From Escherichia coli (GTDB lineage: Bacteria > Pseudomonadota > Gammaproteobacteria > Enterobacterales > Enterobacteriaceae), in NCBI RefSeq assembly GCF_030013595.1, contig NZ_CP122768.1: a stretch of DNA of 64,000 nt; one strand, given 5' to 3'. The notes under the pieces were generated by a model, which saw nothing but the letters and a program-made list of their open reading frames with translations, searched no databases and was not told the DNA's origin. Made by a program: the position numbers and the translations under genes. Below are positions 14,800-44,116 of this stretch, piece by piece; the stretch's first letter is position 1, and every line of letters starts with the position of its first letter.

Positions 14800-15266
14800 T
14801 GGAAATAAAGCTCATCGATAATCCGGTGAAGCTTGCAGAATTCCTCAACAACCCGGCAAACACGGGAAATATCGTAGATAGTGGAGATAAATACTACATC
14901 AAGCCTGATGCGGTATACCTCGGCATCTACGAAGGATTAGTGCTGGCTGGCGTTCATGAAGTGCGTAACTTCTGGCATAGCGTTGTTGAATGCCATGCGG
15001 TGTACGACCCCGGATTCCGTGGTGAATATGCACTGCAAGGGCATCGATTATTCTGCAAGTGGCTTCTCGAAAACTCACCATTCCTTAACAGCATTACCAT
15101 GGTTCCTGACACCACGAAATACGGACGGGCAATTATCCGTTTGCTTGGCGCTACCCGTGTTGGTCACCTTGATGATGCGTACATGAGTAACGGAAAACCG
15201 GTTGGAATCACCCTCTATCAATTACCTCGTTCAAAATATGAGGAGCTATTAAATGTTAGTACTTAG
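14796..15266 (+). CDS. P22 gp14-like assembly/ejection-associated protein
   Basis: 156 aa in the position of P22 gene 14. Confidence 0.55.
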
Positions 15267-15933
15267 CGAAAGCTTCAAGAATAAATTGCTTCCCATGAAT
15301 GGGTATATGAAAGGCGGCAGCGACTCCGGATCTAAAGCCCAGGCACGCGCAACTGAAAAGGGCATCGAACTGCAGCGTGAAATGTGGCAAACGAACATGC
15401 AGAACCTTGCACCGTTCACGCCACTCGCTAAGCAGTACGTATCACAGTTGCAGAATCTTTCCTCTCTTCAGGGGCAAGGTCAGGCGCTTAACCAGTATTA
15501 CAACTCTCAGCAGTATAAAGACCTTGCAGGGCAGGCACGCTATCAGAGTCTGGCAGCAGCAGAGGCAACGGGTGGATTAGGCTCTACAGCAACAGGAAAC
15601 CAGTTAGCAGCAATCGCACCTACACTCGGTCAAAACTGGCTGTCAGGTCAGATGAACAACTACAACAATCTGGCAAACATTGGCCTTGGTGCTCTTACAG
15701 GTCAGGCAAACGCTGGGCAGAACTACGCTAACAACGTCAGCCAATTGTATCAACAGCAGGCGGCAGCATCTGCGGCGAATGCTAACCGACCATCAGGACT
15801 GCAATCAGCCTTGGGAGGTGCCATGAGCGGTGCGGCATCAGGGGCGATGATTGGCTCTGTGGTGCCAGGAATAGGTACAGCTGTTGGCGCTATTGGTGGC
15901 GGTATTATCGGTGGTCTTGGATCATTGTTTTAA
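15253..15933 (+). CDS. Ejection (internal) protein, P22 gp7-like
   Basis: 226 aa; Gln/Ala/Gly-rich low-complexity protein with Gly-rich C-terminus; syntenic with P22 gene 7. Confidence 0.7.
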   Translation: MLVLSESFKNKLLPMNGYMKGGSDSGSKAQARATEKGIELQREMWQTNMQNLAPFTPLAKQYVSQLQNLSSLQGQGQALNQYYNSQQYKDLAGQARYQSLAAAEATGGLGSTATGNQLAAIAPTLGQNWLSGQMNNYNNLANIGLGALTGQANAGQNYANNVSQLYQQQAAASAANANRPSGLQSALGGAMSGAASGAMIGSVVPGIGTAVGAIGGGIIGGLGSLF

Positions 15934-15942
15934 GGTGGGAAT

Positions 15943-17325
15943 ATGGCTAGTTGGCAACAAGGAATCAACTCAGGCGGCTTTCTTGCTGGTATCGGTGGGC
16001 AAAACTCAAATGCGCCAAAGGCAAGTGATGTAAGTGAGGCGTTGGCCTATATTCGCCAGAACAACGAAATGGAGCGCTCAGGTCGCAATAACATCGGCCT
16101 TCAGGCGTTGCAGGGGCTTGGTAGTGTCGCTCAAACATATCAAGCCGCAAAGCAACAGGAATTCCAAAAAGAATATGCGGCAGCCATCCAGTCAGGTGAT
16201 CGGCAGCAGGTGCGAGATCTGATGACCAAATATCCTGGTCAATTAGAGAAGATTCAGTCTGGTATGAAGTGGGCAGACGAAGACCAGCGCAATTCTATCG
16301 GCACCTTAGCGGCTGGCGCACGCCTTGCGTCATCGTCTCCAGAAGCAATGCAATCATGGCTGCAAAACAACGCCAAGGAACTGGCGCGCGTCGGTGTTGA
16401 CCCTAACAGCGTTGCTCAGATGTATCAGCAAAACCCTTCAGGATTTGGTGAGTTTGTTGATCACCTTGGAATGGCTGCTCTTGGTCCGATTGATTACTTC
16501 AATGTTCAGGACAAGATGGCTGGTCGTGAAATTGACCGAGGCAAACTGGCAGAGACAATCCGCAGCAATCAGGCTGGCGAGGCGCTAACAGCACGAGGCC
16601 AGAACATCACGATGCGCGGTCAGGACTTATCTGCTTCTACTGCGCGACGAGGTCAGGATTTGGCAATGCAGCGAGCGTCAACAAGACGAATCGCTGGGAA
16701 TGATGAGCGTACAGTTCAGTTATCAGATGGCAGAACTGTAACGGTAGGCGGGAAGCTTCACGGCGCTGGGGCTAATGCGTTCTACGAAGGCATCGACAAC
16801 GAGGGGAATATGGTTCGCGTCCCTGCTGGCTCTATTGCCGCTCCGGCTACATCGGCAGCAAGCGCGCAGAATTACGCAATGAAGAAAGATCTTGATGCAA
16901 TTTCTGGTGCATCAATTGACGATCTTGGCTTCATGACTGGCATTACAGGCTCTTCAGGTTCTCCTGCTCTTGGTGCAGATATTCGTAGCCGTGCATCTGG
17001 TGGTGATCAGAGGAAACTATACAACGCTGCACAGCGAATCCAAGGAAAGATGCAGAATCAGGGCATTGCAGCAGCCAGAGACATGGGGGCATCCGGTATC
17101 AACACCGTTGCAGAAGCAAAGATGTATTTTCAAGGTATGCCACAGGTTGATTTCTCAAGCCCTGAAGCACTGCAACAATCAATGCGCGACATTCAGCAAT
17201 ATACCGACAATTACAACCAGCAATATAACGTTAATGTTGGTAAATCTCAGCGGCAGCAATCTCAACCTGCACAGGTATCACAGCCAGCAGCCAGCAGTAA
17301 CTTTTCTTCACTATGGGGTGATTAA
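15943..17325 (+). CDS. Ejection protein, P22 gp20-like
   Basis: 460 aa; position and composition as P22 gene 20. Confidence 0.7.
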
Positions 17326-19430
17326 TGGCTAAAGCATGGAAAGATGTTATCGCTTCTCCACAGTATCAGGCGTTAGCACCAGAACAAAAAGCGCAGGCTC
17401 AGGAGCAATACTTCAATGAAGTCGTGGCCCCGCAAGCCGGAGAAAGTGTAGAGCAGGCTAAGCAGGCTTTTTATGCTGCCTATCCACTACCATCAACGAA
17501 TGAAATAGACCGATACCAATCAGCAACTCAAAATATTCAACATACATCATCTGATAATTCTCTTGCGTCAGGGTATGCAAAGTTAGCTACTCAGCAAAGA
17601 GAGGGGCTTGAGCGTTCAGCAGAACAGGGAGCCAGTCTTGGGGCTGCGATGCGCGATGCTATAACAGGCGAAAGCCGAATGACTCCAGAGATGGAGAGAC
17701 TGCAAAATGTCGACCTTGCCCCAGAGTTAACCTCACTCAGCATGGATGCTCTAAAAGCTCGATGGTCTCAACTTTTCGGCTCTGACGCATCTCAGGAAAA
17801 GATTCTTCAGAGCATGGGAGCGAAATTAAGGCAGGATGAGAAGGGGAACACTATCGTTTCCCTGCCATCCGGTGATTATGCTCTGAACAAGCCGGGTTTA
17901 TCGCCGCAAGACGTGGCATCGTTTCTGGCTAATGCGCTGGCGTTTACACCAGCGGGCAGGGCTGGAACGGTGCTTGGTGCCATAGGAAAATCAGCAGCTA
18001 CAGATTTAGCACTACAGGGAGCCACCAGCCTTGCTGGTGGAGAAGATATTGATCCGTTACAAACGGTAATTTCTGCTGGCATTGGTGGTATTGGTAAGGG
18101 GCTGGAAAATACAGCGAGTGCGGTTTCGAGGGCTGTTCGTGGTGATATGTCGCCTGAAGCAAAGGCTGCTGTCGACTTTGCATCGGAAAGAAATCTGCCG
18201 TTAATGACCAGTGACATGCTGAAAGATAAAACCTTTATGCAGAGTCAGGCTCAGACATTAGGCGAAAGAGTTCCTTTTTTTGGAACCGGTAAGAATCGGC
18301 TGAATCAACAACAAGCACGAGAAAATTTAGTCAGAACATTTAGCGATGGTCTGGGTGGTATTTCTGATAAACAGCTTTATGAATCTGCGACTAAAGGGCA
18401 ACAAAAATTCATTGAGGCAGCAGGAAAGCGATATAACCGCATAATTGACGCTATGGGGGATACCCCTGTCGATCTCTCAAACACGGTAAAAGCTATCGAC
18501 AATCAGATTGCCGTGTTAAGCCGCCCGGGCAAATCTCAGGATAGAGCCGCGGTAAAAGTCTTGCAGCAATTTAAAGACGATATCACCAGCGGGCCAAATG
18601 ACCTGCGTCTGGCGAGGGAAAACAGAACCGATCTTCGAAAGCGATTTATGGCGTCATCTGACACTGTTGATAAAGATACGCTCCAGAAAGCCAGCGATAT
18701 TATCTACAAGGCATATACGGCGGATATGAAAAAAGCCGTAGCCAAAAATCTTGGAGCAGACGAAGCCATTAATATGGCAAGGGTTGATCGCTCATGGTCT
18801 AAATTCAATGACATGATGGGAAGAACGCGCGTTCAAAAGGCAATAGCCAGCGGCAAGGCCACGCCTGAGGATGTAACAAAACTCGTTTTTAGCCAAAGCC
18901 CATCAGAACGTTCTCAGCTTTACAGGCTTCTGGATGACAATGGTAGGCAAAACGCACGAGCAGCCATAGTTCAGAATGCTGTAGATAAGGCGACTGATCC
19001 GTCTGGAAATATCAGTGTTGAGAAGTTTATTAATGCGTTACACCGGAACAGGAAGCAATCAGCAACTTTCTTTAAAGGCGTACATGGAAAGGAACTGGAC
19101 GGCGTTATTAAATACCTCAACGATACAAGACACGCGGCAAAAGCGAACGTTCAAAACTTAAATGGTCAGCAGCTTTATGGATTGTTAGTTGGTGGTGGCA
19201 TCATAAACGCAGCAGTATTAGCGGGGATGCTAAAAACGGCTGCGTTTGTTGTTCCTGCTGCTGGTGCCGTAGGCGGAGCAGCGAAGGCATACGAAAGCCC
19301 TGTTATACGAAATGCCTTGTTACGTCTGGCAAATACGCCAAAAGGTAGCACAGCATATGACAGAGCGATCAGTACGGTCACACAATCGCTCACCAGAGTC
19401 GCACAGGCATCACAAAAAGAAGCTCAATAA
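17325..19430 (+). CDS. Ejection protein, P22 gp16-like (longer than I recall for P22)
   Basis: 701 aa; last gene of the rightward virion operon. Confidence 0.7.
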   Translation: MAKAWKDVIASPQYQALAPEQKAQAQEQYFNEVVAPQAGESVEQAKQAFYAAYPLPSTNEIDRYQSATQNIQHTSSDNSLASGYAKLATQQREGLERSAEQGASLGAAMRDAITGESRMTPEMERLQNVDLAPELTSLSMDALKARWSQLFGSDASQEKILQSMGAKLRQDEKGNTIVSLPSGDYALNKPGLSPQDVASFLANALAFTPAGRAGTVLGAIGKSAATDLALQGATSLAGGEDIDPLQTVISAGIGGIGKGLENTASAVSRAVRGDMSPEAKAAVDFASERNLPLMTSDMLKDKTFMQSQAQTLGERVPFFGTGKNRLNQQQARENLVRTFSDGLGGISDKQLYESATKGQQKFIEAAGKRYNRIIDAMGDTPVDLSNTVKAIDNQIAVLSRPGKSQDRAAVKVLQQFKDDITSGPNDLRLARENRTDLRKRFMASSDTVDKDTLQKASDIIYKAYTADMKKAVAKNLGADEAINMARVDRSWSKFNDMMGRTRVQKAIASGKATPEDVTKLVFSQSPSERSQLYRLLDDNGRQNARAAIVQNAVDKATDPSGNISVEKFINALHRNRKQSATFFKGVHGKELDGVIKYLNDTRHAAKANVQNLNGQQLYGLLVGGGIINAAVLAGMLKTAAFVVPAAGAVGGAAKAYESPVIRNALLRLANTPKGSTAYDRAISTVTQSLTRVAQASQKEAQ

Positions 19431-19448
19431 CTGGTTAGCCATGGATGG

Positions 19449-19637
19449 TTATTTCCTTAGCACATGAAACAATGTTTGCTTTAATTCCACCCATACAATT
19501 ATGACCACTATAGACAGACAAAAGAAACTGAATGCATTGGCATCACGATCGAAACCTTCTCCGGCACTAAATCCGTAAAAGGTCATAAAAAATATAAAAA
19601 TTGCGCACTTTGCAACGTTTACAAATTTTTTCTTCAC
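19449..19637 (-). CDS. Hypothetical small membrane protein (moron, antisense to late operon)
   Basis: 62 aa, two predicted hydrophobic helices, low GC; lies where P22 carries sieA. Confidence 0.4.
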   Translation of the reverse strand: MKKKFVNVAKCAIFIFFMTFYGFSAGEGFDRDANAFSFFCLSIVVIIVWVELKQTLFHVLRK

Positions 19638-20011
19638 ACCAACCTCCTTAGTTTTGCTCAGGATACCAGATGATACTTTATTGGTGGAGTGGTGTGTGAA
19701 AACGTGTCAACGACAAACCATCCACAACTTGGACGAATGATTTAGCAAAAAGTGCTATTTTTGGTGTTTAGTGTCATAGAAAAGTGAATAGCTCACTTTT
19801 CAACATTGCATGAAACTTGCAGGAAATGTGACATTACCTTATAGGTAATTTCGGCGAAAATGCAGTAAATGTGAAACGTAATGGTTTAAACATGTCGCTA
19901 AAGTGGTTGTAAGTTAGCCTCCGAAGGATTGCTGATAGCTTTGTTATAGTATTAAATGACATTTGACATAGTTGGATACTTAGCTGTGGCTATCAAGATG
20001 GAGGTGTGTTC

Positions 20012-20455
20012 ATGCTTACTTGTTTTGATGTCGCCGACTACTTCCTGTCGCGGTGTGACGAGGATAGCGGTGACACAATCTCTAATTTAAAATTACAAAA
20101 GCTTGTTTACTATGCTCAGGGGTTTTCATTGGCGTTGCTTGGTGAGCCTCTTTTTCAGAATAAGATGGAAGCTTGGATGCATGGCCCTGTTGTCCCTGAG
20201 CTTTATCGCCGTTATAAACAATATGGTAATGGAGCTATCCCTTCTCCAGAGTCTTTTGATGCTGAAAAATTCAGCGAAGAACAGTTAGAGCTATTAGAAG
20301 AAGTCTGGGATGTTTTTGGGCAATTTTCTGCCTGGAAACTGAGGAACATGACACACGAAGAGTCACCATGGAGATCAAACTATATTGAGGGTGTTGGTGG
20401 TTCTGAAATTAGCTCTAAGGAGATGGCAGAGTACTTTGCAACTCGGATTAACTAA
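20012..20455 (+). CDS. DUF4065 / Panacea-domain protein (putative antitoxin, PanA/SocA-like)
   Basis: Motif LKLQKLVYYAQGFSLALLGEPLF...EAWMHGPVVPELYRRYKQYG typical of DUF4065 phage-associated proteins; GGAGG 7 nt upstream of ATG 20012 (the ORF track uses GTG 20006). Confidence 0.65.
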   Translation: MLTCFDVADYFLSRCDEDSGDTISNLKLQKLVYYAQGFSLALLGEPLFQNKMEAWMHGPVVPELYRRYKQYGNGAIPSPESFDAEKFSEEQLELLEEVWDVFGQFSAWKLRNMTHEESPWRSNYIEGVGGSEISSKEMAEYFATRIN

Positions 20456-20459
20456 CGAG

Positions 20460-20879
20460 ATGGCAAGAAAATCTAAAAGGATTATCCCCCCTGCTGAATC
20501 TACAGGTAAGTTAAAGTTAGGGCCGCAGTCAGGGGGGAATTCAGATCAAAAGAAACCGAAATTTTCATTCTGTTACATCCAAAGCTCTCACTGCATAACG
20601 AAATGCCAAAAAGATGAGAAAGCTGGCTTAGCTGATAAATTATACAGATTAAGTCAACTAACATGGGCAGAGATTAAGCAGCAAGGTAGGCATAAGCTTG
20701 GATTTGAGAAGATTGCAAGGGGTGCAATTAAAGCTGGTATCCCCGGTCATATAACGGAAGACGTAGATCATTTCTTGGCTTTTAGATTTGATGATTTGAA
20801 AGCCATGGTTGGTTATCGTCTTGGATCGACATTTTTTGTTATATGGCTTGATAGAGAGTTCAACCTATACAAGCACTAA
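20460..20879 (+). CDS. Uncharacterised partner protein of the Panacea-like gene (candidate toxin/effector)
   Basis: ATG 4 nt after upstream stop; 139 aa, basic N-terminus, Cys cluster (CYIQSSHCITKC), C-terminal GYRLGSTFFVIWLDREFNLYKH weakly like RelE/ParE-type toxin C-termini; followed by strong terminator. Confidence 0.5.
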   Translation: MARKSKRIIPPAESTGKLKLGPQSGGNSDQKKPKFSFCYIQSSHCITKCQKDEKAGLADKLYRLSQLTWAEIKQQGRHKLGFEKIARGAIKAGIPGHITEDVDHFLAFRFDDLKAMVGYRLGSTFFVIWLDREFNLYKH

Positions 20880-20908
20880 TAAAACCCACCGTCAGGTGGG
20901 TTTTTTTG
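20879..20908. terminator. Strong, probably bidirectional intrinsic terminator
   Basis: Hairpin acccacc-gtca-ggtgggt flanked by an A-run upstream and a T-run downstream; sits between convergent genes. Confidence 0.8.
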
Positions 20909-20923
20909 TTGGAGATAAAATGG

Positions 20924-21127
20924 TTAACCAAATCGATCCTTAAAGCGTCTATCGCTGTTGCGTCTCTCCATTTTACTGTTGCAGTACGGACAAAGATGCT
21001 GTTTCTTTCCATCGATAGTCCATGTGAAGTACTTTTTCTTAAATCCAGCACCACAGATATCGCAACTTCTTGGTTTAAACATACTGGCTATGAAGATAAG
21101 AACAACAAATCCTATGATCCATTCCAT
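20924..21127 (-). CDS. Hypothetical small membrane-anchored zinc-ribbon protein
   Basis: 67 aa; N-terminal hydrophobic helix then CDICG...CPYC (CxxC...CxxC); low GC. Confidence 0.45.
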   Translation of the reverse strand: MEWIIGFVVLIFIASMFKPRSCDICGAGFKKKYFTWTIDGKKQHLCPYCNSKMERRNSDRRFKDRFG

Positions 21128-21268
21128 ATCATGTACCTGTTTTAACTTTATTTTTTGATTTTTAGGGATTAATCAGAAACTTTATCTTGCGATTAAGCAA
21201 AGCTACTAGCTAACAAAAGAGTGCGTATACAATCAATCGTTTCACATCAACCTCAACAAGGAGAAATC

Positions 21269-36451: not shown

Positions 36452-36937
36452 ATGCAAGTTTTTATCATGCGTCACGGCGACGCAGCCCTCGATGCCGCCA
36501 GTGATTCGGTTCGTCCTCTGACTACTAACGGTTGTGACGAATCTCGCCTGATGGCGAACTGGCTGAAAGGTCAAAAAGTGGAAATCGAACGCGTTCTGGT
36601 GAGCCCGTTCCTGCGAGCCGAGCAAACACTGGAAGAAGTAGGGGATTGTCTGAACCTGCCTTCCAGTGCAGAAGTTCTGCCGGAGTTAACGCCCTGCGGC
36701 GATGTTGGTCTGGTCAGTGCCTATTTACAGGCGTTGACCAATGAAGGTGTTGCTTCGGTACTGGTGATCTCCCACTTACCCTTAGTCGGGTATCTGGTTG
36801 CTGAGTTATGTCCGGGCGAAACGCCGCCTATGTTTACCACCTCGGCCATTGCCAGCGTAACGCTTGATGAAAGCGGAAACGGCACATTCAACTGGCAGAT
36901 GAGCCCGTGTAATCTGAAGATGGCAAAAGCGATTTAA
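36452..36937 (+). CDS. sixA: Phosphohistidine phosphatase SixA
   Basis: 161 aa; N-terminal RHG catalytic motif (MQVFIMRHGDA). Confidence 0.9.
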   Translation: MQVFIMRHGDAALDAASDSVRPLTTNGCDESRLMANWLKGQKVEIERVLVSPFLRAEQTLEEVGDCLNLPSSAEVLPELTPCGDVGLVSAYLQALTNEGVASVLVISHLPLVGYLVAELCPGETPPMFTTSAIASVTLDESGNGTFNWQMSPCNLKMAKAI

Positions 36938-36950
36938 TACGCATGCACAA

Positions 36951-36987
36951 GGCCCGCTGGTGTAATCTATCGGGCCTTTATTTTTTT
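36951..36987 (+). terminator. Intrinsic terminator after sixA
   Basis: Hairpin ggcccg...cgggcc followed by long T-run. Confidence 0.8.
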
Positions 36988-37598
36988 CTGGCAATGTTGA
37001 ATTTATGCAATCTTATTGTACTAACAATGATCCGCTTGTGATCGAATGGTCTTTATTTTATACGGCATGACGCTTTTATTTGTAAAAATTTACATATTGA
37101 AAGAGAATTTACTTTTATTCATAAATTATTTTTCTGGAAGCATTTTTAGGTAAATAATGACTAAAGTGAAAAATATTATTGGGTCTTGATTTTATATTAA
37201 TTATAGTGTTTTAATATTATATCGTTGCGAAATTAATATCACAAGATAGTCATCGCCATGTGATTGTTTTTGACTTTAATTTATTCACTGGATTTTTGCA
37301 TTTGCCGTTTTTTTGAACTTATTCTTCATTATTGAGATGAAAAGTTTCAGTAATTATTATCCCCGACTATTAATTAAGTTTTTCTAACTTTGAATGTTAG
37401 AAAATCTAAATTGCATCAGTCATATTAAAATATCAACATGTTCGGCGCGCCAAAGAATATTATATCAAGGAACCTGTTTTTTCAGGAGCTGACAATCTGT
37501 TCATTGGCTGCTTAAAAGTCGCTGTAAAAATTGAAGAAGCTCTGTGTCAATATTTCAGTTGGCTTATATTCTAATTATTTATGATTTAAGGACAAATA

Positions 37599-38165
37599 AT
37601 GAGTAAGTTTGTAAAAGCAGCAGTTGCCACGGCAATGCTCATGGGGGCGCTGACTTCAGCATCAGTCGTTGCCGCAGGGAACAACGGTACAGTGAGATTT
37701 TACGGCACAATTGAAGACTCCCCGTGCTCAATTGTTCCTGACGATCATAAACTGGAAGTGGATATGGGCAGCATCGGTACGGGTTCTTTAACCGGCGGCA
37801 AAACAACCACACCAAAAGATTTCCAGATTCGTTTACAGGACTGTAATTTCAATACAGAAACGACAATGGCTACCACATTCACCGGTAATCCGTACTCCAC
37901 TAACGCAGATAACTATTCTCTGTCTAACATGGATAATGGAATTGAAATTCCAAACGTTAGCCTGGTTATCGGTGACCAGCACGGTACAGGTTATGCACTG
38001 GGAGCAGAGATTAAGCAACCTATCGTGAAGGACAGTTCAACGGGAAAAGGCAAGCCTAAACAAACTCTGAACTTTAAAGCATGGTTAGTGGGTGAAACGG
38101 ATGCTGTAACACCAACACCGGCACCGTTTGAAACGCTGACGACGTTCCAGATCACGTATCTCTAA
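37599..38165 (+). CDS. yfcV: Fimbrial major subunit (YfcV-like)
   Basis: 188 aa with signal peptide and fimbrial subunit C-terminal strand; first gene of chaperone-usher operon. Confidence 0.8.
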   Translation: MSKFVKAAVATAMLMGALTSASVVAAGNNGTVRFYGTIEDSPCSIVPDDHKLEVDMGSIGTGSLTGGKTTTPKDFQIRLQDCNFNTETTMATTFTGNPYSTNADNYSLSNMDNGIEIPNVSLVIGDQHGTGYALGAEIKQPIVKDSSTGKGKPKQTLNFKAWLVGETDAVTPTPAPFETLTTFQITYL

Positions 38166-38236
38166 TGTATTTCCCCCATAGCTGCAAAGTTATGGGGTTT
38201 ATAACTACCAAATAACTAAATTATAAAAAATCATGG

Positions 38237-40888
38237 ATGGATACGCCGATGCCAGAACATTCTTTTCTCCGTTTACGGGGGCTTTCGTGGTGGATTGCTC
38301 TGGCAATTTCTGGAAGTCCATTTAATGCCCTGGCAGACGATACCATTCAGTTTGATGGCCGATTTCTTGATTTAAAAGGCAATACCAAAATTGATTTGGG
38401 CCGTTTTTCGCAAAAAGGCTATGTAGAACCGGGAAAATATAACTTACGCGTTCATGTAAATAATCAGCCGTTACCTGACGACTACGATATCTACTGGTAC
38501 GCAACTGAAAACGATCCGAATAAATCATATGCCTGCTTATCGCCAGAGCTGGTTGCCCAGTTTGGTCTGAAGGAAGATATTGCGAAGAATTTGCAATGGA
38601 TCCGCGATGGTCAGTGTCTGAATACGGCACTTTTAGCAGGTACAGAAATTAGCGGCGATTTAGGCCAGTCTGCACTCCTTGTTTCTGTACCGCAGGCTTA
38701 TCTGGAATATACCGACAGCGAGTGGGACCCGCCTTCGCGCTGGGATGACGGTATCCCTGGGCTTATTGCCGATTACAGTATCAACGCGCAAACCCGACAT
38801 GAAAATGGGGGTGATGACACTAACGACATCAGCGGTAATGGTACGGTCGGCGTTAACGTTGGGCCGTGGCGCTTACGAGCTGACTGGCAGAGCGATTATC
38901 AGCATACCCGCAGTAACGATGACGGCGACACTGACGATAGCGGTACGCAAAAAAACTGGGAGTGGAGTCGTTACTACGCCTGGCGCGCCTTGCCGTCATT
39001 AAAAGCCAAACTTTCGCTGGGCGAAGATTATCTCAACTCCGATATTTTTGATGGCTTCAGTTACATTGGCGGCAGCATCAGTACCGATGATCAAATGTTA
39101 CCGCCAAACCTGCGCGGCTACGCCCCCGATATTTCAGGTGTTGCACACACTACCGCTAAAGTGACCGTAACCCAAATGGGCCGTGTCATTTACGAAACCC
39201 AGGTGCCCGCAGGGCCATTCCGCATTCAGGATATTGGCGATTCCGTCTCTGGCACGCTGCATGTCCGCATTGAAGAACAAAACGGCCAGGTACAAGAATA
39301 CGACGTCAGCACGGCGTCCATGCCGTTCCTGACTCGCCCCGGCCAGGTGCGTTATAAAGTGACAATGGGGCGTCCACAAAACTGGGACCATCAGGTTGCA
39401 GGTAGCTTCTTCTCGGGCGGCGAGGCATCGTGGGGGATTGCCAATGGCTGGTCGCTCTACGGCGGTGCGTTAGCCGATGAAAACTACCAGTCGGCGGCGC
39501 TGGGCCTCGGTCGTGACCTGGCGCTGTTAGGCGCGTTAGCGTTTGATGTCACTCACTCTCGTGTTCAACTCGACGATAACAGCGTGTATGGCAACAAAAC
39601 GCTGGACGGCAACTCTTATCGCGTCAGCTATGCCAAAGATTTCGATGAACTCAACAGTCGGGTGACGTTTGCTGGATACCGCTTCTCTGAAAAAAACTAC
39701 ATGACCATGAGCGAGTATCTGGATGCGAACGACGACGACCGGGCGCGCACCGGTAACGACAAAGAGATGTATACGGTCACCTATAACCAGAACTTCACGG
39801 ATGCGCGCGTTTCGGTCTATCTCAACTATTCCCACCATACCTACTGGGATCGCCAGGATCAGACCAACTACAACATGATGCTTTCTCATTATTTCAATTT
39901 AGGAAGCCTTCGCAACCTGAGCGTTTCTCTGACCGGTTATCGCTACGAATACGATAAAAGTGCCGACAAGGGTGTTTATCTGTCCTTAAGTTTGCCGTGG
40001 GGCGACAACAGCACTATCAGTTACAACGGCAACTATGGCAGCGGTGCCGACAGCAATCAGGTGAGCCTGTATCACCGCATTGATGACGCCAGCCACTACA
40101 CGTTAAGCGCCGGAACCAGCGAAAACCACAGCAGCGTGGATGGCTACTACAGCCACGATGGCACTCTGGCAAAAGTTGATCTCAGTGCTAACTACCATGA
40201 AGGGCAATACACCTCAGCGGGGATCTCTTTACAGGGCGGGGCAACGCTGACCGCTCACGGCGGGGCGCTGCATCGTACACAAAACATGGGCGGTACACGT
40301 CTGTTAATCGACGCTGATGGCGTTGCTAATGTGCCGGTTGAAGGTAATGGTTCCGCCGTTTATACCAACATGTTCGGCAAAGCGGTGGTGGCAGATGTGA
40401 ATGATTACTACCGCAACCAGGCTTATATCGATTTGAACAAACTGCCGGAAAACGCCGAAGCTACAAAATCAGTGGTTCAGGCAACGCTGACGGAAGGCGC
40501 TATTGGCTACCGTAAATTTGCGGTAATCAGCGGTGAGAAGGCGATGGCAGTGCTGCGCTTGCAGGATGGCAGCCATCCGCCATTTGGGGCGGAAGTGAAA
40601 AACGATAATCAACAACAAGTAGGGTTGGTTGATGACGAAGGTAATGTTTATCTGGCAGGCGTTAAACCGGGTGAACATATGACCGTTTTCTGGGAGGGTG
40701 AATCTCACTGCGATATCAGCCTGCCAGACCCGTTACCGAATGACCTGTTCAATGGCTTGTTGTTGCCATGCCAGCAAAAGGGGGGAAGTTCTCCCGTCAT
40801 ACCGCATGATATTCAACCCGTCATTCAGGAGCAGACACAACAGGTGACACCAATGGAACCGCCGATGTCTGTTTCATCGAACCAATAA
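38237..40888 (+). CDS. yfcU: Fimbrial outer membrane usher, full-length (YfcU-type)
   Basis: 883-aa uninterrupted ORF with usher features; from memory the K-12 counterpart is annotated as disrupted. Confidence 0.8.
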   Translation: MDTPMPEHSFLRLRGLSWWIALAISGSPFNALADDTIQFDGRFLDLKGNTKIDLGRFSQKGYVEPGKYNLRVHVNNQPLPDDYDIYWYATENDPNKSYACLSPELVAQFGLKEDIAKNLQWIRDGQCLNTALLAGTEISGDLGQSALLVSVPQAYLEYTDSEWDPPSRWDDGIPGLIADYSINAQTRHENGGDDTNDISGNGTVGVNVGPWRLRADWQSDYQHTRSNDDGDTDDSGTQKNWEWSRYYAWRALPSLKAKLSLGEDYLNSDIFDGFSYIGGSISTDDQMLPPNLRGYAPDISGVAHTTAKVTVTQMGRVIYETQVPAGPFRIQDIGDSVSGTLHVRIEEQNGQVQEYDVSTASMPFLTRPGQVRYKVTMGRPQNWDHQVAGSFFSGGEASWGIANGWSLYGGALADENYQSAALGLGRDLALLGALAFDVTHSRVQLDDNSVYGNKTLDGNSYRVSYAKDFDELNSRVTFAGYRFSEKNYMTMSEYLDANDDDRARTGNDKEMYTVTYNQNFTDARVSVYLNYSHHTYWDRQDQTNYNMMLSHYFNLGSLRNLSVSLTGYRYEYDKSADKGVYLSLSLPWGDNSTISYNGNYGSGADSNQVSLYHRIDDASHYTLSAGTSENHSSVDGYYSHDGTLAKVDLSANYHEGQYTSAGISLQGGATLTAHGGALHRTQNMGGTRLLIDADGVANVPVEGNGSAVYTNMFGKAVVADVNDYYRNQAYIDLNKLPENAEATKSVVQATLTEGAIGYRKFAVISGEKAMAVLRLQDGSHPPFGAEVKNDNQQQVGLVDDEGNVYLAGVKPGEHMTVFWEGESHCDISLPDPLPNDLFNGLLLPCQQKGGSSPVIPHDIQPVIQEQTQQVTPMEPPMSVSSNQ

Positions 40889-40907
40889 CGTGATTAAGGA
40901 ATGATCC

Positions 40908-41657
40908 ATGACTAAATATCTCTCTGCCAAAACATTGACAACGGTACTGTCGTTACTGGCAGCAACGGTAAGTTTTTCTGCTCAGGCGTCAGTAACGCCC
41001 GATCGTACTCGCCTGATTTTTAATGAAAGCGATAAATCTATCAGTGTGACGCTGCGTAATAACGACCCCAAACTGCCTTATCTGGCGCAAAGCTGGATTG
41101 AAGATGAAAAGGGCGTCAAGATCAGCTCGCCGCTGGCGGTATTGCCGCCTGTACAGCGCATTGAAGCAATGATGAATGGCCAGGTTAAAATTCAGGGCCT
41201 GCCGGATATTCATAAATTACCTGCCGATCGGGAATCGATGTTCTATTTCAACGTGCGCGAAATTCCGCCGAAATCGAACAAATCCAACACGCTACAAATC
41301 GCTCTTCAGACGCGTATCAAACTTTTCTGGCGACCGAAAGCTCTGGAAAAAAACACCACGCAAAACCCGTGGCAGCATAAAGTGACCTTAACCCGCAACG
41401 GTCAGGAATTTACTGTCAATAACCCTACGCCGTATTACGTCATTTTCAGTAATGCCAGCGCACAGAAAAATGGCAATCCGGCAGCCGGTTTCTCGCCAAT
41501 AGTGATGTCGCCGAAAACCTCTGCACCGCTGAATGTGAAGATGGGGAGTGTGCCGGTACTGACCTATGTCAACGACTATGGCGCTCGGATGCCGCTCTTT
41601 TTCACCTGCAACGGCAATAGTTGCCAGGTTGATGAAGAGCAGAGCCGCAAAGGCTGA
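40908..41657 (+). CDS. yfcS: Fimbrial periplasmic chaperone (YfcS-like)
   Basis: 249 aa PapD-like chaperone with signal peptide. Confidence 0.8.
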   Translation: MTKYLSAKTLTTVLSLLAATVSFSAQASVTPDRTRLIFNESDKSISVTLRNNDPKLPYLAQSWIEDEKGVKISSPLAVLPPVQRIEAMMNGQVKIQGLPDIHKLPADRESMFYFNVREIPPKSNKSNTLQIALQTRIKLFWRPKALEKNTTQNPWQHKVTLTRNGQEFTVNNPTPYYVIFSNASAQKNGNPAAGFSPIVMSPKTSAPLNVKMGSVPVLTYVNDYGARMPLFFTCNGNSCQVDEEQSRKG

Positions 41658-41672
41658 GGCCGGGAGTGTGAG

Positions 41673-42164
41673 ATGAAACGACTACTTTTGGCCGGGCTGG
41701 GAGGAGTGCTGCTTACGGGCAGTGCTCTTGCCGGTGAAACGAAAAGTGTGCCATTGACATTGCGCGTACTGGTAGACCCACCACCTCCTTGTACCGTAAA
41801 AGGCAGTAACGTCGATTTTGGTGATGTGATCATCAAAAAAATCAATGGTACTGAATATCGCAAAGATGCAGGTTATACCCTGAACTGTGCCAATAGCCTG
41901 AGCGATGACCTTCAGATGCAGTTTAAGGGCACAACCACCACGATCAATGGCGAAACGGTGTTAAGCACGGGAATTACCGGGTTTGGCATTCGTATTGAAA
42001 ATGCAGCCGATAACTCTCTGTTTGCGATTGGCGACAATACCTGGACTCCATTTAGCGTCAGTAGCCAGCCACAACTCAAAGCAGTGCCAGTCAAACAGGA
42101 TGGCGTGACGCTGACAGGCGCGCAGTTTAACGCCAGCATGACAATGGTGGTGGATTACCAATGA
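41673..42164 (+). CDS. yfcR: Fimbrial subunit (YfcR-like)
   Basis: 163 aa, signal peptide, fimbrial subunit features, synteny. Confidence 0.7.
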   Translation: MKRLLLAGLGGVLLTGSALAGETKSVPLTLRVLVDPPPPCTVKGSNVDFGDVIIKKINGTEYRKDAGYTLNCANSLSDDLQMQFKGTTTTINGETVLSTGITGFGIRIENAADNSLFAIGDNTWTPFSVSSQPQLKAVPVKQDGVTLTGAQFNASMTMVVDYQ

Positions 42165-42640
42165 AACGACTCTCGTTAATTTTATTATCCGCTTTTTGCA
42201 CCATAACGCATGCCGCACCGGAAGATATCACCTTCACGGGTACGCTGATCGAACCTCCGGTCTGCACCGTCAGCAATGGTGATGATATTGAGATCCAGTT
42301 TATCGACGTCATTATCGACAATATTGACGGGGTTAATTACCGCAAAGATGTTCCGTACCAGATAACGTGTGACCCTGATATTACCGATGACGCCTGGGTA
42401 ATGACGCTAACCTGGACCGGTACACAGACCAGCTATAACGATGCGGCGATTCAGACGGATGTCACGGGATTAGGGATTGAACTCCAGCAAAACGGTCAGC
42501 CCTTTAAGCTGAATACCCCGCTTAACGTGACACCCGCCAACCTGCCGAAGTTGAAGGCCGCACCTGTAAAAGCTTCCGATGCCACGCTGACTGACGGTAA
42601 CTTTTCCGCTTACGCCACATTGCAGGTGGATTATCAATGA
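42161..42640 (+). CDS. yfcQ: Fimbrial subunit (YfcQ-like)
   Basis: 159 aa, signal peptide, fimbrial subunit features, synteny. Confidence 0.7.
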   Translation: MKRLSLILLSAFCTITHAAPEDITFTGTLIEPPVCTVSNGDDIEIQFIDVIIDNIDGVNYRKDVPYQITCDPDITDDAWVMTLTWTGTQTSYNDAAIQTDVTGLGIELQQNGQPFKLNTPLNVTPANLPKLKAAPVKASDATLTDGNFSAYATLQVDYQ

Positions 42641-43182
42641 ACAAACTGAAGAAATATCAATGTATCAGGGTGCAAACCTTTCTGTTGTGCGGTGTGCTGG
42701 TGCTGGCGAGTCATTCAGCACTGGCAGCTAATAATTTGCATTTTTACGGCAACCTGATGAGCAAAACCTGTACTCCGGTGGAACAGGCTGGAACGTTGGC
42801 AGAGGTACAGTTTGCGAATATTAGCCACAAAGATTTGATGGTGCGCGGTCAGTCCGATCGTGTACCGGTGGTTTTTCGCCTGAAAGATTGCCGTGGGCCA
42901 GCGCAGTACAGCGTAAAAGTTACCCTGACCGGAACAGAAGACAGTGGGCAACCGGGATTCCTCGCTCTGGATGGTACCTCCGGCGCACAGGGCGTAGGCA
43001 TTGGTATGGAAACTACTGATGGTACTGCTGTTGCTATTAATAACACGACGGGAGTGACCTTTGTGCTGAATGATGGCAATAACAGTCTTAATTTCAGAGC
43101 ATGGTTACAGGCAAAAGAGGGGCGTGATGTAACACCTGGTGATTTTACCGCCCAGTTAACCGCAACGTTTGAGTATATTTAA
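42637..43182 (+). CDS. yfcP: Fimbrial subunit (YfcP-like)
   Basis: 181 aa, signal peptide, fimbrial subunit features, synteny. Confidence 0.7.
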   Translation: MNKLKKYQCIRVQTFLLCGVLVLASHSALAANNLHFYGNLMSKTCTPVEQAGTLAEVQFANISHKDLMVRGQSDRVPVVFRLKDCRGPAQYSVKVTLTGTEDSGQPGFLALDGTSGAQGVGIGMETTDGTAVAINNTTGVTFVLNDGNNSLNFRAWLQAKEGRDVTPGDFTAQLTATFEYI

Positions 43183-44047
43183 GATGAAAATAATGCGCTG
43201 GATTTTGGGCCTGCTGATATCACTTTTCTTCAGTACAGCAGTTCAGGCGAATGTCATTGTTGCAACAATGTATACACCGATAGGGTATGCAAGCTACACA
43301 ACGAAGATAACTTATTATCTTGATGTTCTTACCCCCGATAGCGTCAATCACGGTGTTTATGAGACACCAAATAACACCGGTTTAATCACTGGATGGATAC
43401 CTTTGAAAAGCTGGACGGGACCTGGCCCTGCACCATCATTAAAAGTCATATCGATGACAGCGATATCACAATCATCTTGTCCGGGGCTTGCAGAGTATGA
43501 CAGCCGTGCGCAAAGGACGATGTGGACTTGTTATGAAATACGAATGGAAGTCTGGAAGGAAGACTCCAGCGTTCATGGCTGCCCGTGGCTGGTATCGACA
43601 CATGCAGATAGCATTGATCTTATTGATCCTGCTCCGGGAACCTATTCCGGACGCACAGTCAGTAACTCTTCTTGTCCACCTATACCGTTAGGGCCTTATG
43701 ATGTCTCCTGGAATGAAAGTCGGGTTGTGCATGATAAGACGTTAGCGCTCCAGTCTACCGGCGGGATAATTGAAAAAACGCTCTCCACCTACCTGATGAA
43801 AGACGGCAAACTGTGTGACGGCAGCAAATTTGGTGATACTGACGATCGTGGTGCTTATTGTCGTTGGGTGTCGCAGATGCTCACCTTCACCTCATCGGGC
43901 TGTGACAATGCCAAAGTGACGGTAACACCAAATCGTCACCCCATTACCGACAAAGAGCTTCATGATATGGTGCTTCGCGTGGATACCACCTCGCGGCAAC
44001 CTATTGATTCTACCTGTCGATTCCAGTACGTGCTGAATATGCTGTAG
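43169..44047 (+). CDS. yfcO: Putative fimbrial tip adhesin-like protein (YfcO-like)
   Basis: 292 aa Cys-containing secreted protein at the operon end. Confidence 0.65.
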   Translation: MSIFKMKIMRWILGLLISLFFSTAVQANVIVATMYTPIGYASYTTKITYYLDVLTPDSVNHGVYETPNNTGLITGWIPLKSWTGPGPAPSLKVISMTAISQSSCPGLAEYDSRAQRTMWTCYEIRMEVWKEDSSVHGCPWLVSTHADSIDLIDPAPGTYSGRTVSNSSCPPIPLGPYDVSWNESRVVHDKTLALQSTGGIIEKTLSTYLMKDGKLCDGSKFGDTDDRGAYCRWVSQMLTFTSSGCDNAKVTVTPNRHPITDKELHDMVLRVDTTSRQPIDSTCRFQYVLNML

Positions 44048-44067
44048 TAGTTCGTCGTTGTGCACTG

Positions 44068-44104
44068 ATGCCTGATGCGACGCTGAAGCGTCTTATCAGG
44101 CATT
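44068..44104. repeat. REP (repetitive extragenic palindromic) element
   Basis: gcctgatgcgacgctgaagcgtcttatcaggc imperfect palindrome typical of E. coli REP. Confidence 0.8.
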
Positions 44105-44116
44105 CGATGCCAGCAT

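Follow-up and report, generated by a model that had tools for sequence, protein, structure and literature searches.

The sixA-yfcV spacer of an Escherichia coli genome as a probable H-NS-silenced control region of the cryptic Yfc fimbrial operon

The AT-rich spacer between sixA and yfcV in the analysed stretch of an Escherichia coli genome (64,000 nucleotides of contig NZ_CP122768.1, hereafter the window) is an ordinary control region whose K-12 counterpart is already catalogued, and the nucleoid protein H-NS most likely silences it. Our analysis suggests, with a probability of roughly 0.8, that it acts as the cis-regulatory, H-NS-silenced promoter region of the cryptic Yfc chaperone-usher operon. 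The original prediction had described a silenced fimbrial promoter that might also contain a phase-variable switch; the silenced promoter is supported by synteny, composition and the K-12 literature, whereas the switch is not supported.

Boundaries, composition and neighbours of the spacer

The spacer is the exact gap from the stop codon of sixA to the start codon of yfcV (Table 1), in the gene order fadI, fadJ, sixA (36452-36937), 661-bp spacer and chaperone-usher operon; sixA, which matches Pfam His_Phos_1, ends at 36937, and a major-subunit gene matching Pfam Fimbrial begins at 37599. With a GC content of 0.293, as against 0.495 in the window, it is the most GC-poor of all 661-bp segments in the 64 kb. 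It holds 20 homopolymer A/T tracts of 4 nt or longer, among them 11 that reach 5 nt and 3 that reach 6 nt, and 17 runs composed purely of A and T that span 8 nt or more, the longest of which measures 17. No ORF longer than 35 aa was found inside it, and no small ORF is conserved in frame between spacer alleles; a recurrent ORF ending, '...IIY(D/G)LRTNNE*', was rejected as a by-product of invariant leader nucleotides. No Rfam 15 covariance model matched positions 36700-37800 on either strand at E<=1, RefSeq carries no annotation within the spacer of matching genomes, and paralogous copies elsewhere in the genome were absent at blastn sensitivity. The original prediction of about 660 bp of very AT-rich non-coding DNA with long A/T tracts ahead of yfcV agrees with these values. 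A 1.9-kb query around the spacer was 100% identical to strain HCP5S3_I2, and sixA was matched in 5,425 of 5,426 complete genomes.

Table 1 Features of the sixA-yfcV spacer and the adjoining operon (window coordinates; a dot marks features without strand)
Feature	Coordinates	Strand	Remarks
Complete sixA-yfcV intergenic region	36938..37598	.	661 bp, GC 0.293; syntenic with the K-12 sixA-yfcV spacer
sixA intrinsic terminator, GGCCCG...CGGGCC hairpin (36949-36978), then TTTATTTTTTT	36949..36989	+	fold -16.9 kcal/mol
Only two GATC sites (37029, 37040)	37029..37043	.	11 bp apart, about 560 bp upstream of the ATG
Distal promoter-like site TTGGGT-17-TATAGT	37179..37207	+	positional equivalent of the K-12 'constitutive' RpoD promoter TTGAAA-17-TATAGT (PMC3946193)
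Distal conserved block TCTTGA...AATATTATATC	37184..37223	.	conserved in most divergent alleles
Conserved block TATTAATTAAG	37368..37378	.	allele alignments
Perfect 9-7-9 palindrome TTTTCTAAC-N7-GTTAGAAAA	37380..37404	.	full form specific to the window allele
Conserved block TTAGAAAATCTAAATTG	37397-37413	.	allele alignments
Conserved block AAAATATCAACAT	37427-37439	.	allele alignments
Left arm CCAAAGAATA of the conserved inverted pair	37450..37459	+	nearly invariant in 10 distinct alleles
Right arm TGTTCATTGG of the inverted pair (TATTCAATGG in most alleles)	37498..37507	+	allele alignments
Promoter-proximal leader: -10-like TATATT (37565-37570), Shine-Dalgarno AAGGA (37588-37592)	37561..37598	+	nearly invariant
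yfc chaperone-usher operon	37599..44047	+	ORFs, Pfam, RefSeq annotation

The first ~50 bp of the spacer are the intrinsic, Rho-independent terminator of sixA and stand apart from the regulatory part. The terminator hairpin lies just past the stop codon, is followed by the U-run UUUAUUUUUUU, and is kept in every spacer allele with differing stem sequences; a simple terminator scan missed it because its apical part exceeds the 8-nt loop limit of the scan.

Downstream of the spacer, all components of a Yfc-type chaperone-usher operon are encoded in one direction: a yfcV-like major subunit (188 aa, 37599-38165), an usher, a chaperone, three minor subunits and a YfcO-type adhesin. The corresponding Pfam matches are Fimbrial (four genes), Usher with PapC_N and PapC_C, PapD_N/C, and DUF2544 (YfcO-type). 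The downstream gene had been named yfcV, and it is indeed the yfcV ortholog, though in a divergent allele; the amino-acid identity of its product is 66% to K-12 YfcV and 73% to YfcV of the B2 type. The usher ORF (38237-40888) is uninterrupted in the window and encodes 883 aa with a full-length Pfam Usher match; in K-12 and in the otherwise near-identical HCP5S3_I2, the annotated usher gene carries an internal stop and is classed as a pseudogene. HCP5S3_I2 also carries IS1397 after the adhesin gene, and the window has no IS1397 there.

Elsewhere in the window, the second most GC-poor part (GC about 0.31) holds a minus-strand gene (28960-30252) for a 430-aa 'hypothetical protein' between mlaA and fadL, at the equivalent of which K-12 carries yfdF, flanked by a listed promoter island (yfdF/mlaA). 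An integrated element at 14800-26721 beside tRNA-Arg (26647-26721) probably contains integrases at 18618-19619 and 25206-26468, together with toprim-domain, Icd-like and ogr/Delta-like zinc-finger proteins and a P2-family capsid gene, a content taken from the annotation of a strain whose fad-gene coordinates coincide with those of the window. A MazEF-type toxin-antitoxin pair is annotated there just upstream of this element.

Promoter-like sites and the case for H-NS silencing

The several TTGACA/TATAAT-like hexamers of the original prediction are present as one-mismatch forms on both strands and are explained by composition. The plus strand of the spacer contains neither an exact TTGACA nor an exact TATAAT, and its one-mismatch hexamers comprise 5 TTGACA-like and 14 TATAAT-like sites, with similar numbers on the minus strand. 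Paired -35/-10 sites, counted with a surrogate PWM on a uniform background and not with PlatProm, amounted to 78 (40 on the plus strand, 38 on the minus strand), where a 661-bp stretch of the window has a median of 6, making the spacer the densest spot in the window at 13 times the median. Compared with dinucleotide-preserving shuffles of the spacer itself, the enrichment in promoter pairs was not significant (6 vs 3.5 ± 2.0). As the pair count is no higher than in composition-matched shuffles, the promoter-like hexamers are a by-product of AT-richness, and composition-driven promoter-likeness is precisely what the term "promoter island" describes. A-tract or AA/TT helical phasing, a possible curvature signal, was not significant in the spacer either, 26% of shuffles being equally strong.

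Scored with the surrogate PWM, the spacer shows the extreme two-strand promoter density over at least 300 bp by which the Ozoline group defines promoter islands, and it is syntenic and alignable, at ~57% identity, with a listed island. This is the K-12 sixA-yfcV spacer, entered as 2453647_489 yfcV/sixA among 78 E. coli promoter islands (Panyukov & Ozoline 2013, PMC3661553). The K-12 and window spacers occupy the same locus (680 vs 661 bp, GC 0.32 vs 0.29) and share the two-strand promoter density, a TATAGT -10 element and the proximal conserved blocks. They differ in the distal promoter-like site, which keeps its TATAGT in the window allele and has a degenerate -35 element (TTGGGT vs TTGAAA in K-12), with a PWM score of 5.9 vs 10.1. 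The proximal TATATT is the sole promoter candidate that recurs at one alignment column in most alleles, being found there in 6 of the 10 sequences scanned, and the Shine-Dalgarno sequence lies 6 nt ahead of the yfcV ATG.

Island 2453647_489 is flagged as H-NS-bound in the ChIP-chip data of both Kahramanoglou (MG1655) and Oshima (W3110) (PMC3661553). Genomic SELEX placed on the K-12 spacer an RpoD holoenzyme peak, assigned to TTGAAA-17-TATAGT and carrying an HNS flag (PMC3946193), and an RpoS holoenzyme peak at 2454170 (PMC5493296). The original prediction had pointed to H-NS ChIP data as a check, and for the K-12 ortholog two such data sets report binding; for the window allele, whose identity to the K-12 allele used in the H-NS and RNA polymerase binding measurements is only ~57%, we infer H-NS binding and the same behaviour from that ortholog. 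Wurpel 2013 (PMC3559732), citing Korea 2010 for both points, regards the products of the yfc genes as functional but cryptic fimbriae, and separately counts many of the chaperone-usher fimbriae found in commensal E. coli as cryptic and H-NS-repressed. The low transcription that has been published concerns the K-12 allele only. High-throughput data, which could reflect indirect effects, associate over-production of BolA, TosR or CsiR with increased yfcV mRNA and place a CsiR ChIP peak inside the spacer at this locus. The hns paper on EAEC 042, a strain with the window allele, contains nothing on yfc.

The spacer contains 4 near-matches to the H-NS motif TCGATAAATT, whereas the average rate across the window would predict 0.78 in 661 bp. 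The reading as AT-rich silenced DNA is further supported because a complete chaperone-usher operon without a regulator gene lies downstream. Similar arrangements precede the other cryptic fimbrial operons of K-12: the upstream regions of yad, ybg, elf/ycb, yeh, yra and sfm are, like that of yfc, AT-rich directly before the major-subunit gene and have no dedicated regulator gene; five of the six have a GC content of 0.24-0.29, and several are listed as promoter islands. In comparison with these six, the yfc spacer is the longest, and its conserved inverted pair is absent from all of them.

Taken as a working mechanism, transcription of sixA would stop at the terminator in the first ~50 bp, and H-NS would nucleate on and then spread over the remaining AT-rich ~600 bp. 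RNA polymerase at the many promoter-like sites of both strands would be trapped or excluded, and the operon would remain cryptic, being off under ordinary conditions and requiring relief of silencing for its expression. Silencing could be lifted if H-NS is lost, or if an anti-silencing regulator engages the blocks conserved over the promoter-proximal 250 bp. Transcription might then start proximally, from the -10-like TATATT with a leader of about 22 nt, or distally, from TTGGGT-17-TATAGT about 390 bp upstream, through one or both of these putative promoters.

Divergent alleles and conserved blocks

The yfc cassette of ~7.2 kb (36938-44110), comprising the spacer and seven genes, is hyper-divergent between E. 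coli lineages. When the window was compared with K-12 and a B2-type strain, identity was 94-100% through sixA, fell to 0.36-0.64 right after the stop codon, ranged from 0.4 to 0.83 across the whole yfc operon, and recovered to 0.9-1.0 near 44.1 kb, towards smrB; both boundaries of the cassette, this one and the sixA stop codon, are razor-sharp. At least six distinct types of spacer allele can be told apart: the window type (633 genomes), the K-12 type (about 3,500), the B2 type (about 1,200), and further alleles of the O157/E. whittamii type, the E69 type, and the EC42405 and HH45 variants. Pairwise spacer identity between alleles is about 0.53-0.68 (~55%), and GC is kept at 0.27-0.32 in every allele despite this divergence.

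Several rearranged or mislabelled copies were also encountered. IS1 was found at the equivalent of the spacer (window 36938-38300) in NZ_CP068041.1, NZ_CM129872.1 and NZ_CP124483.1, in one of these strains as a simple IS1A insertion in the AT-rich spacer and in the other two right after sixA, where yfcV is missing together with the spacer and the 5' portion of the usher gene. Two separate matching places for the spacer occur in 5 of 3,529 K-12-type genomes and 12 of 1,227 B2-type genomes, which could be due to IS insertions, duplications or rearrangements. The 2.2-kb contig JAIJJM010000567.1, labelled 'MAG: Collinsella sp.', is 98% identical to the E. coli sixA-yfcV spacer and is almost certainly a mis-binned E. 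coli fragment.

Conservation is concentrated in short blocks (Table 1). Six variants of the window allele differ at 56 spacer columns, all of them outside the invariant blocks: 37188-37237, both arms of the inverted pair, and 37572-37637 are free of polymorphism. Between alleles, the last ~40 nt before the ATG are nearly invariant, even in Pseudocitrobacter. The two arms of the inverted pair are mutual reverse complements with the half-site CCAWWGAATA and lie 35-44 bp apart, depending on the allele; in an alignment of 11 sequences, 90% of the pair cells are complementary, compared with 19-39% when one partner is slid. The pair could represent two protein sites or a stem in a leader RNA, or two conserved 10-mers could match by coincidence. 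In Pseudocitrobacter vendiensis, a member of another genus, 167 nt upstream of a yfcV-like gene preserve the leader and both arms, CCAAAGAATA / TATTCGATGG, so the conserved module travels with the cassette.

The half-site was absent from the upstream regions of yadN, sfmA, ybgD, elfA, yehD and yraH in K-12, and elsewhere in the window it has one hit, the chance level. Since these six other cryptic fimbrial upstream regions lack it, any binder is not a shared fimbrial regulator. Resemblance of the conserved blocks to the consensus sites of Lrp, IHF, RcsB, ArcA and sigma-54 was partial and unconvincing, and none of these is claimed. It is conceivable, though we think it rather unlikely, that the inverted pair, the blocks at 37368-37439 and the 40-nt leader form a dedicated control module for Yfc fimbriae, which could consist of specific anti-silencer sites countering H-NS or of a leader-RNA structure.

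Competing readings and significance

The fimS element of type 1 fimbriae likewise lies in AT-rich, H-NS-bound DNA ahead of the gene for a fimbrial major subunit, H-NS binding of the yfc spacer being assumed here by analogy with K-12, and the fimE/fimA spacer is catalogued as a promoter island, as is K-12 yfcV/sixA (PMC3661553). A promoter flipped by a site-specific recombinase would turn Yfc fimbriae ON and OFF, and this was the form of switch for which the original prediction had proposed a search for flanking inverted repeats. The inversion of fimS relies on repeats of 9 bp only, and perfect inverted repeats of this length do occur at 50-600 bp spacing in the spacer, for example TTTTAATAT/ATATTAAAA, 204 bp apart; however, 9 bp is the longest perfect repeat there, and 91% of dinucleotide shuffles match or exceed it. 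Beside the operon, neither a recombinase gene of the fimB/fimE kind nor a regulator gene is present, the neighbours being sixA and the yfc structural genes, and the only tyrosine recombinases in the window (18618-19619 and 25206-26468, in the tRNA-Arg element) are more than 10 kb away. Among the 635 complete genomes matching the window allele, none has a second matching place, and the 633 in which one collinear piece covers at least 80% of the query show a single orientation; the divergent alleles likewise all align collinearly in that orientation. Inversion as in fimS is close to refuted. An epigenetic switch of the pap kind, with heritable ON and OFF states set by Dam methylation at two GATC sites against Lrp and a PapI-like factor, is hardly more credible. 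For pap and yfc alike, a long AT-rich intergenic stretch governs a chaperone-usher operon, and the yfc usher and chaperone match the PapC and PapD Pfam families; two GATC sites are present, and an AT-rich spacer may bind Lrp. These sites are nevertheless at chance level (2 observed vs 1.72 expected), are spaced by 11 bp instead of about 100, adjoin the sixA terminator far upstream of the ATG, and are missing at that position from all other alleles, those of the B2 type having no GATC at all; divergent papI/papB genes are absent, and so is any papI/papB-like ORF within the spacer. As to slipped-strand tracts, homopolymer indels do occur among window-allele variants, but the T-runs affected (36981-36983 and 37308) belong to the terminator tail and to DNA that is not conserved, and neither falls within a promoter spacer. 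The phase-variable switch thus finds no support in repeats above chance, in adjacent genes, in orientation or in conserved GATC sites, and the spacer is, with high confidence, not an invertible or Dam-type switch.

Two other readings, which we consider improbable to much the same degree, concern the conserved blocks and the DNA around them. A long 5' leader transcribed from the distal promoter could contain a cis-acting RNA structure that controls the stability or translation of yfcV mRNA, with the stem of 37450-37459 and 37498-37507, or the hairpin at 37380-37404, as candidates. The complementarity of two invariant blocks is consistent with this, as are the single-sided changes at pair 137/184, all from U-A to U-G and fitting the plus strand, the in vitro K-12 promoter about 390 bp upstream (PMC3946193), and the predicted folds of segment 37440-37516 (-20.6 kcal/mol, z -2.2) and of the palindrome (-9.5 kcal/mol, z -4.0). 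Against it, the eight inner pairs never vary and therefore yield no covariation, and the four outer pairs mix compensatory changes with breaks in several alleles, including one within the window allele (37511 C/G). The whole putative leader of 397 nt folds at a z of only -1.9, no Rfam family matches, and the other alleles do not conserve the 9-7-9 palindrome as a whole; both of its halves overlap conserved blocks, and 6% of shuffles yield a palindrome that is as good. A leader hairpin with the Shine-Dalgarno sequence in its loop and the AUG in its stem was discarded (-3.8 kcal/mol, z -0.9), B2-type changes breaking it rather than compensating. Alternatively, beyond a core promoter and ribosome-binding site, the spacer might be functionless AT-rich filler from horizontal acquisition of the cassette, as suggested by its distal 350 bp, which are mostly barely alignable between alleles (0.36-0.56 identity), by strains in which IS1 inserts in or deletes the spacer at no obvious cost, and by a composition that accounts for the promoter-like sites. 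Filler would not be expected to contain blocks that are invariant up to 250 bp, and in one case about 400 bp, upstream of the ATG in alleles of ~55% identity and again within the window allele; AT-richness is retained in every allele, and H-NS occupies the K-12 ortholog (PMC3661553).

Beyond annotation, the significance of an H-NS-silenced control region here is small, as such a region is expected for a core, cryptic fimbrial operon; its major-subunit gene, yfcV, serves as a marker of uropathogenic strains. What the analysis adds is evidence against an invertible or Dam-type switch for yfc, the distinction of the sixA terminator from the regulatory part, and a footprint map of divergence-resistant blocks that may provide a starting point for learning what activates Yfc fimbriae.
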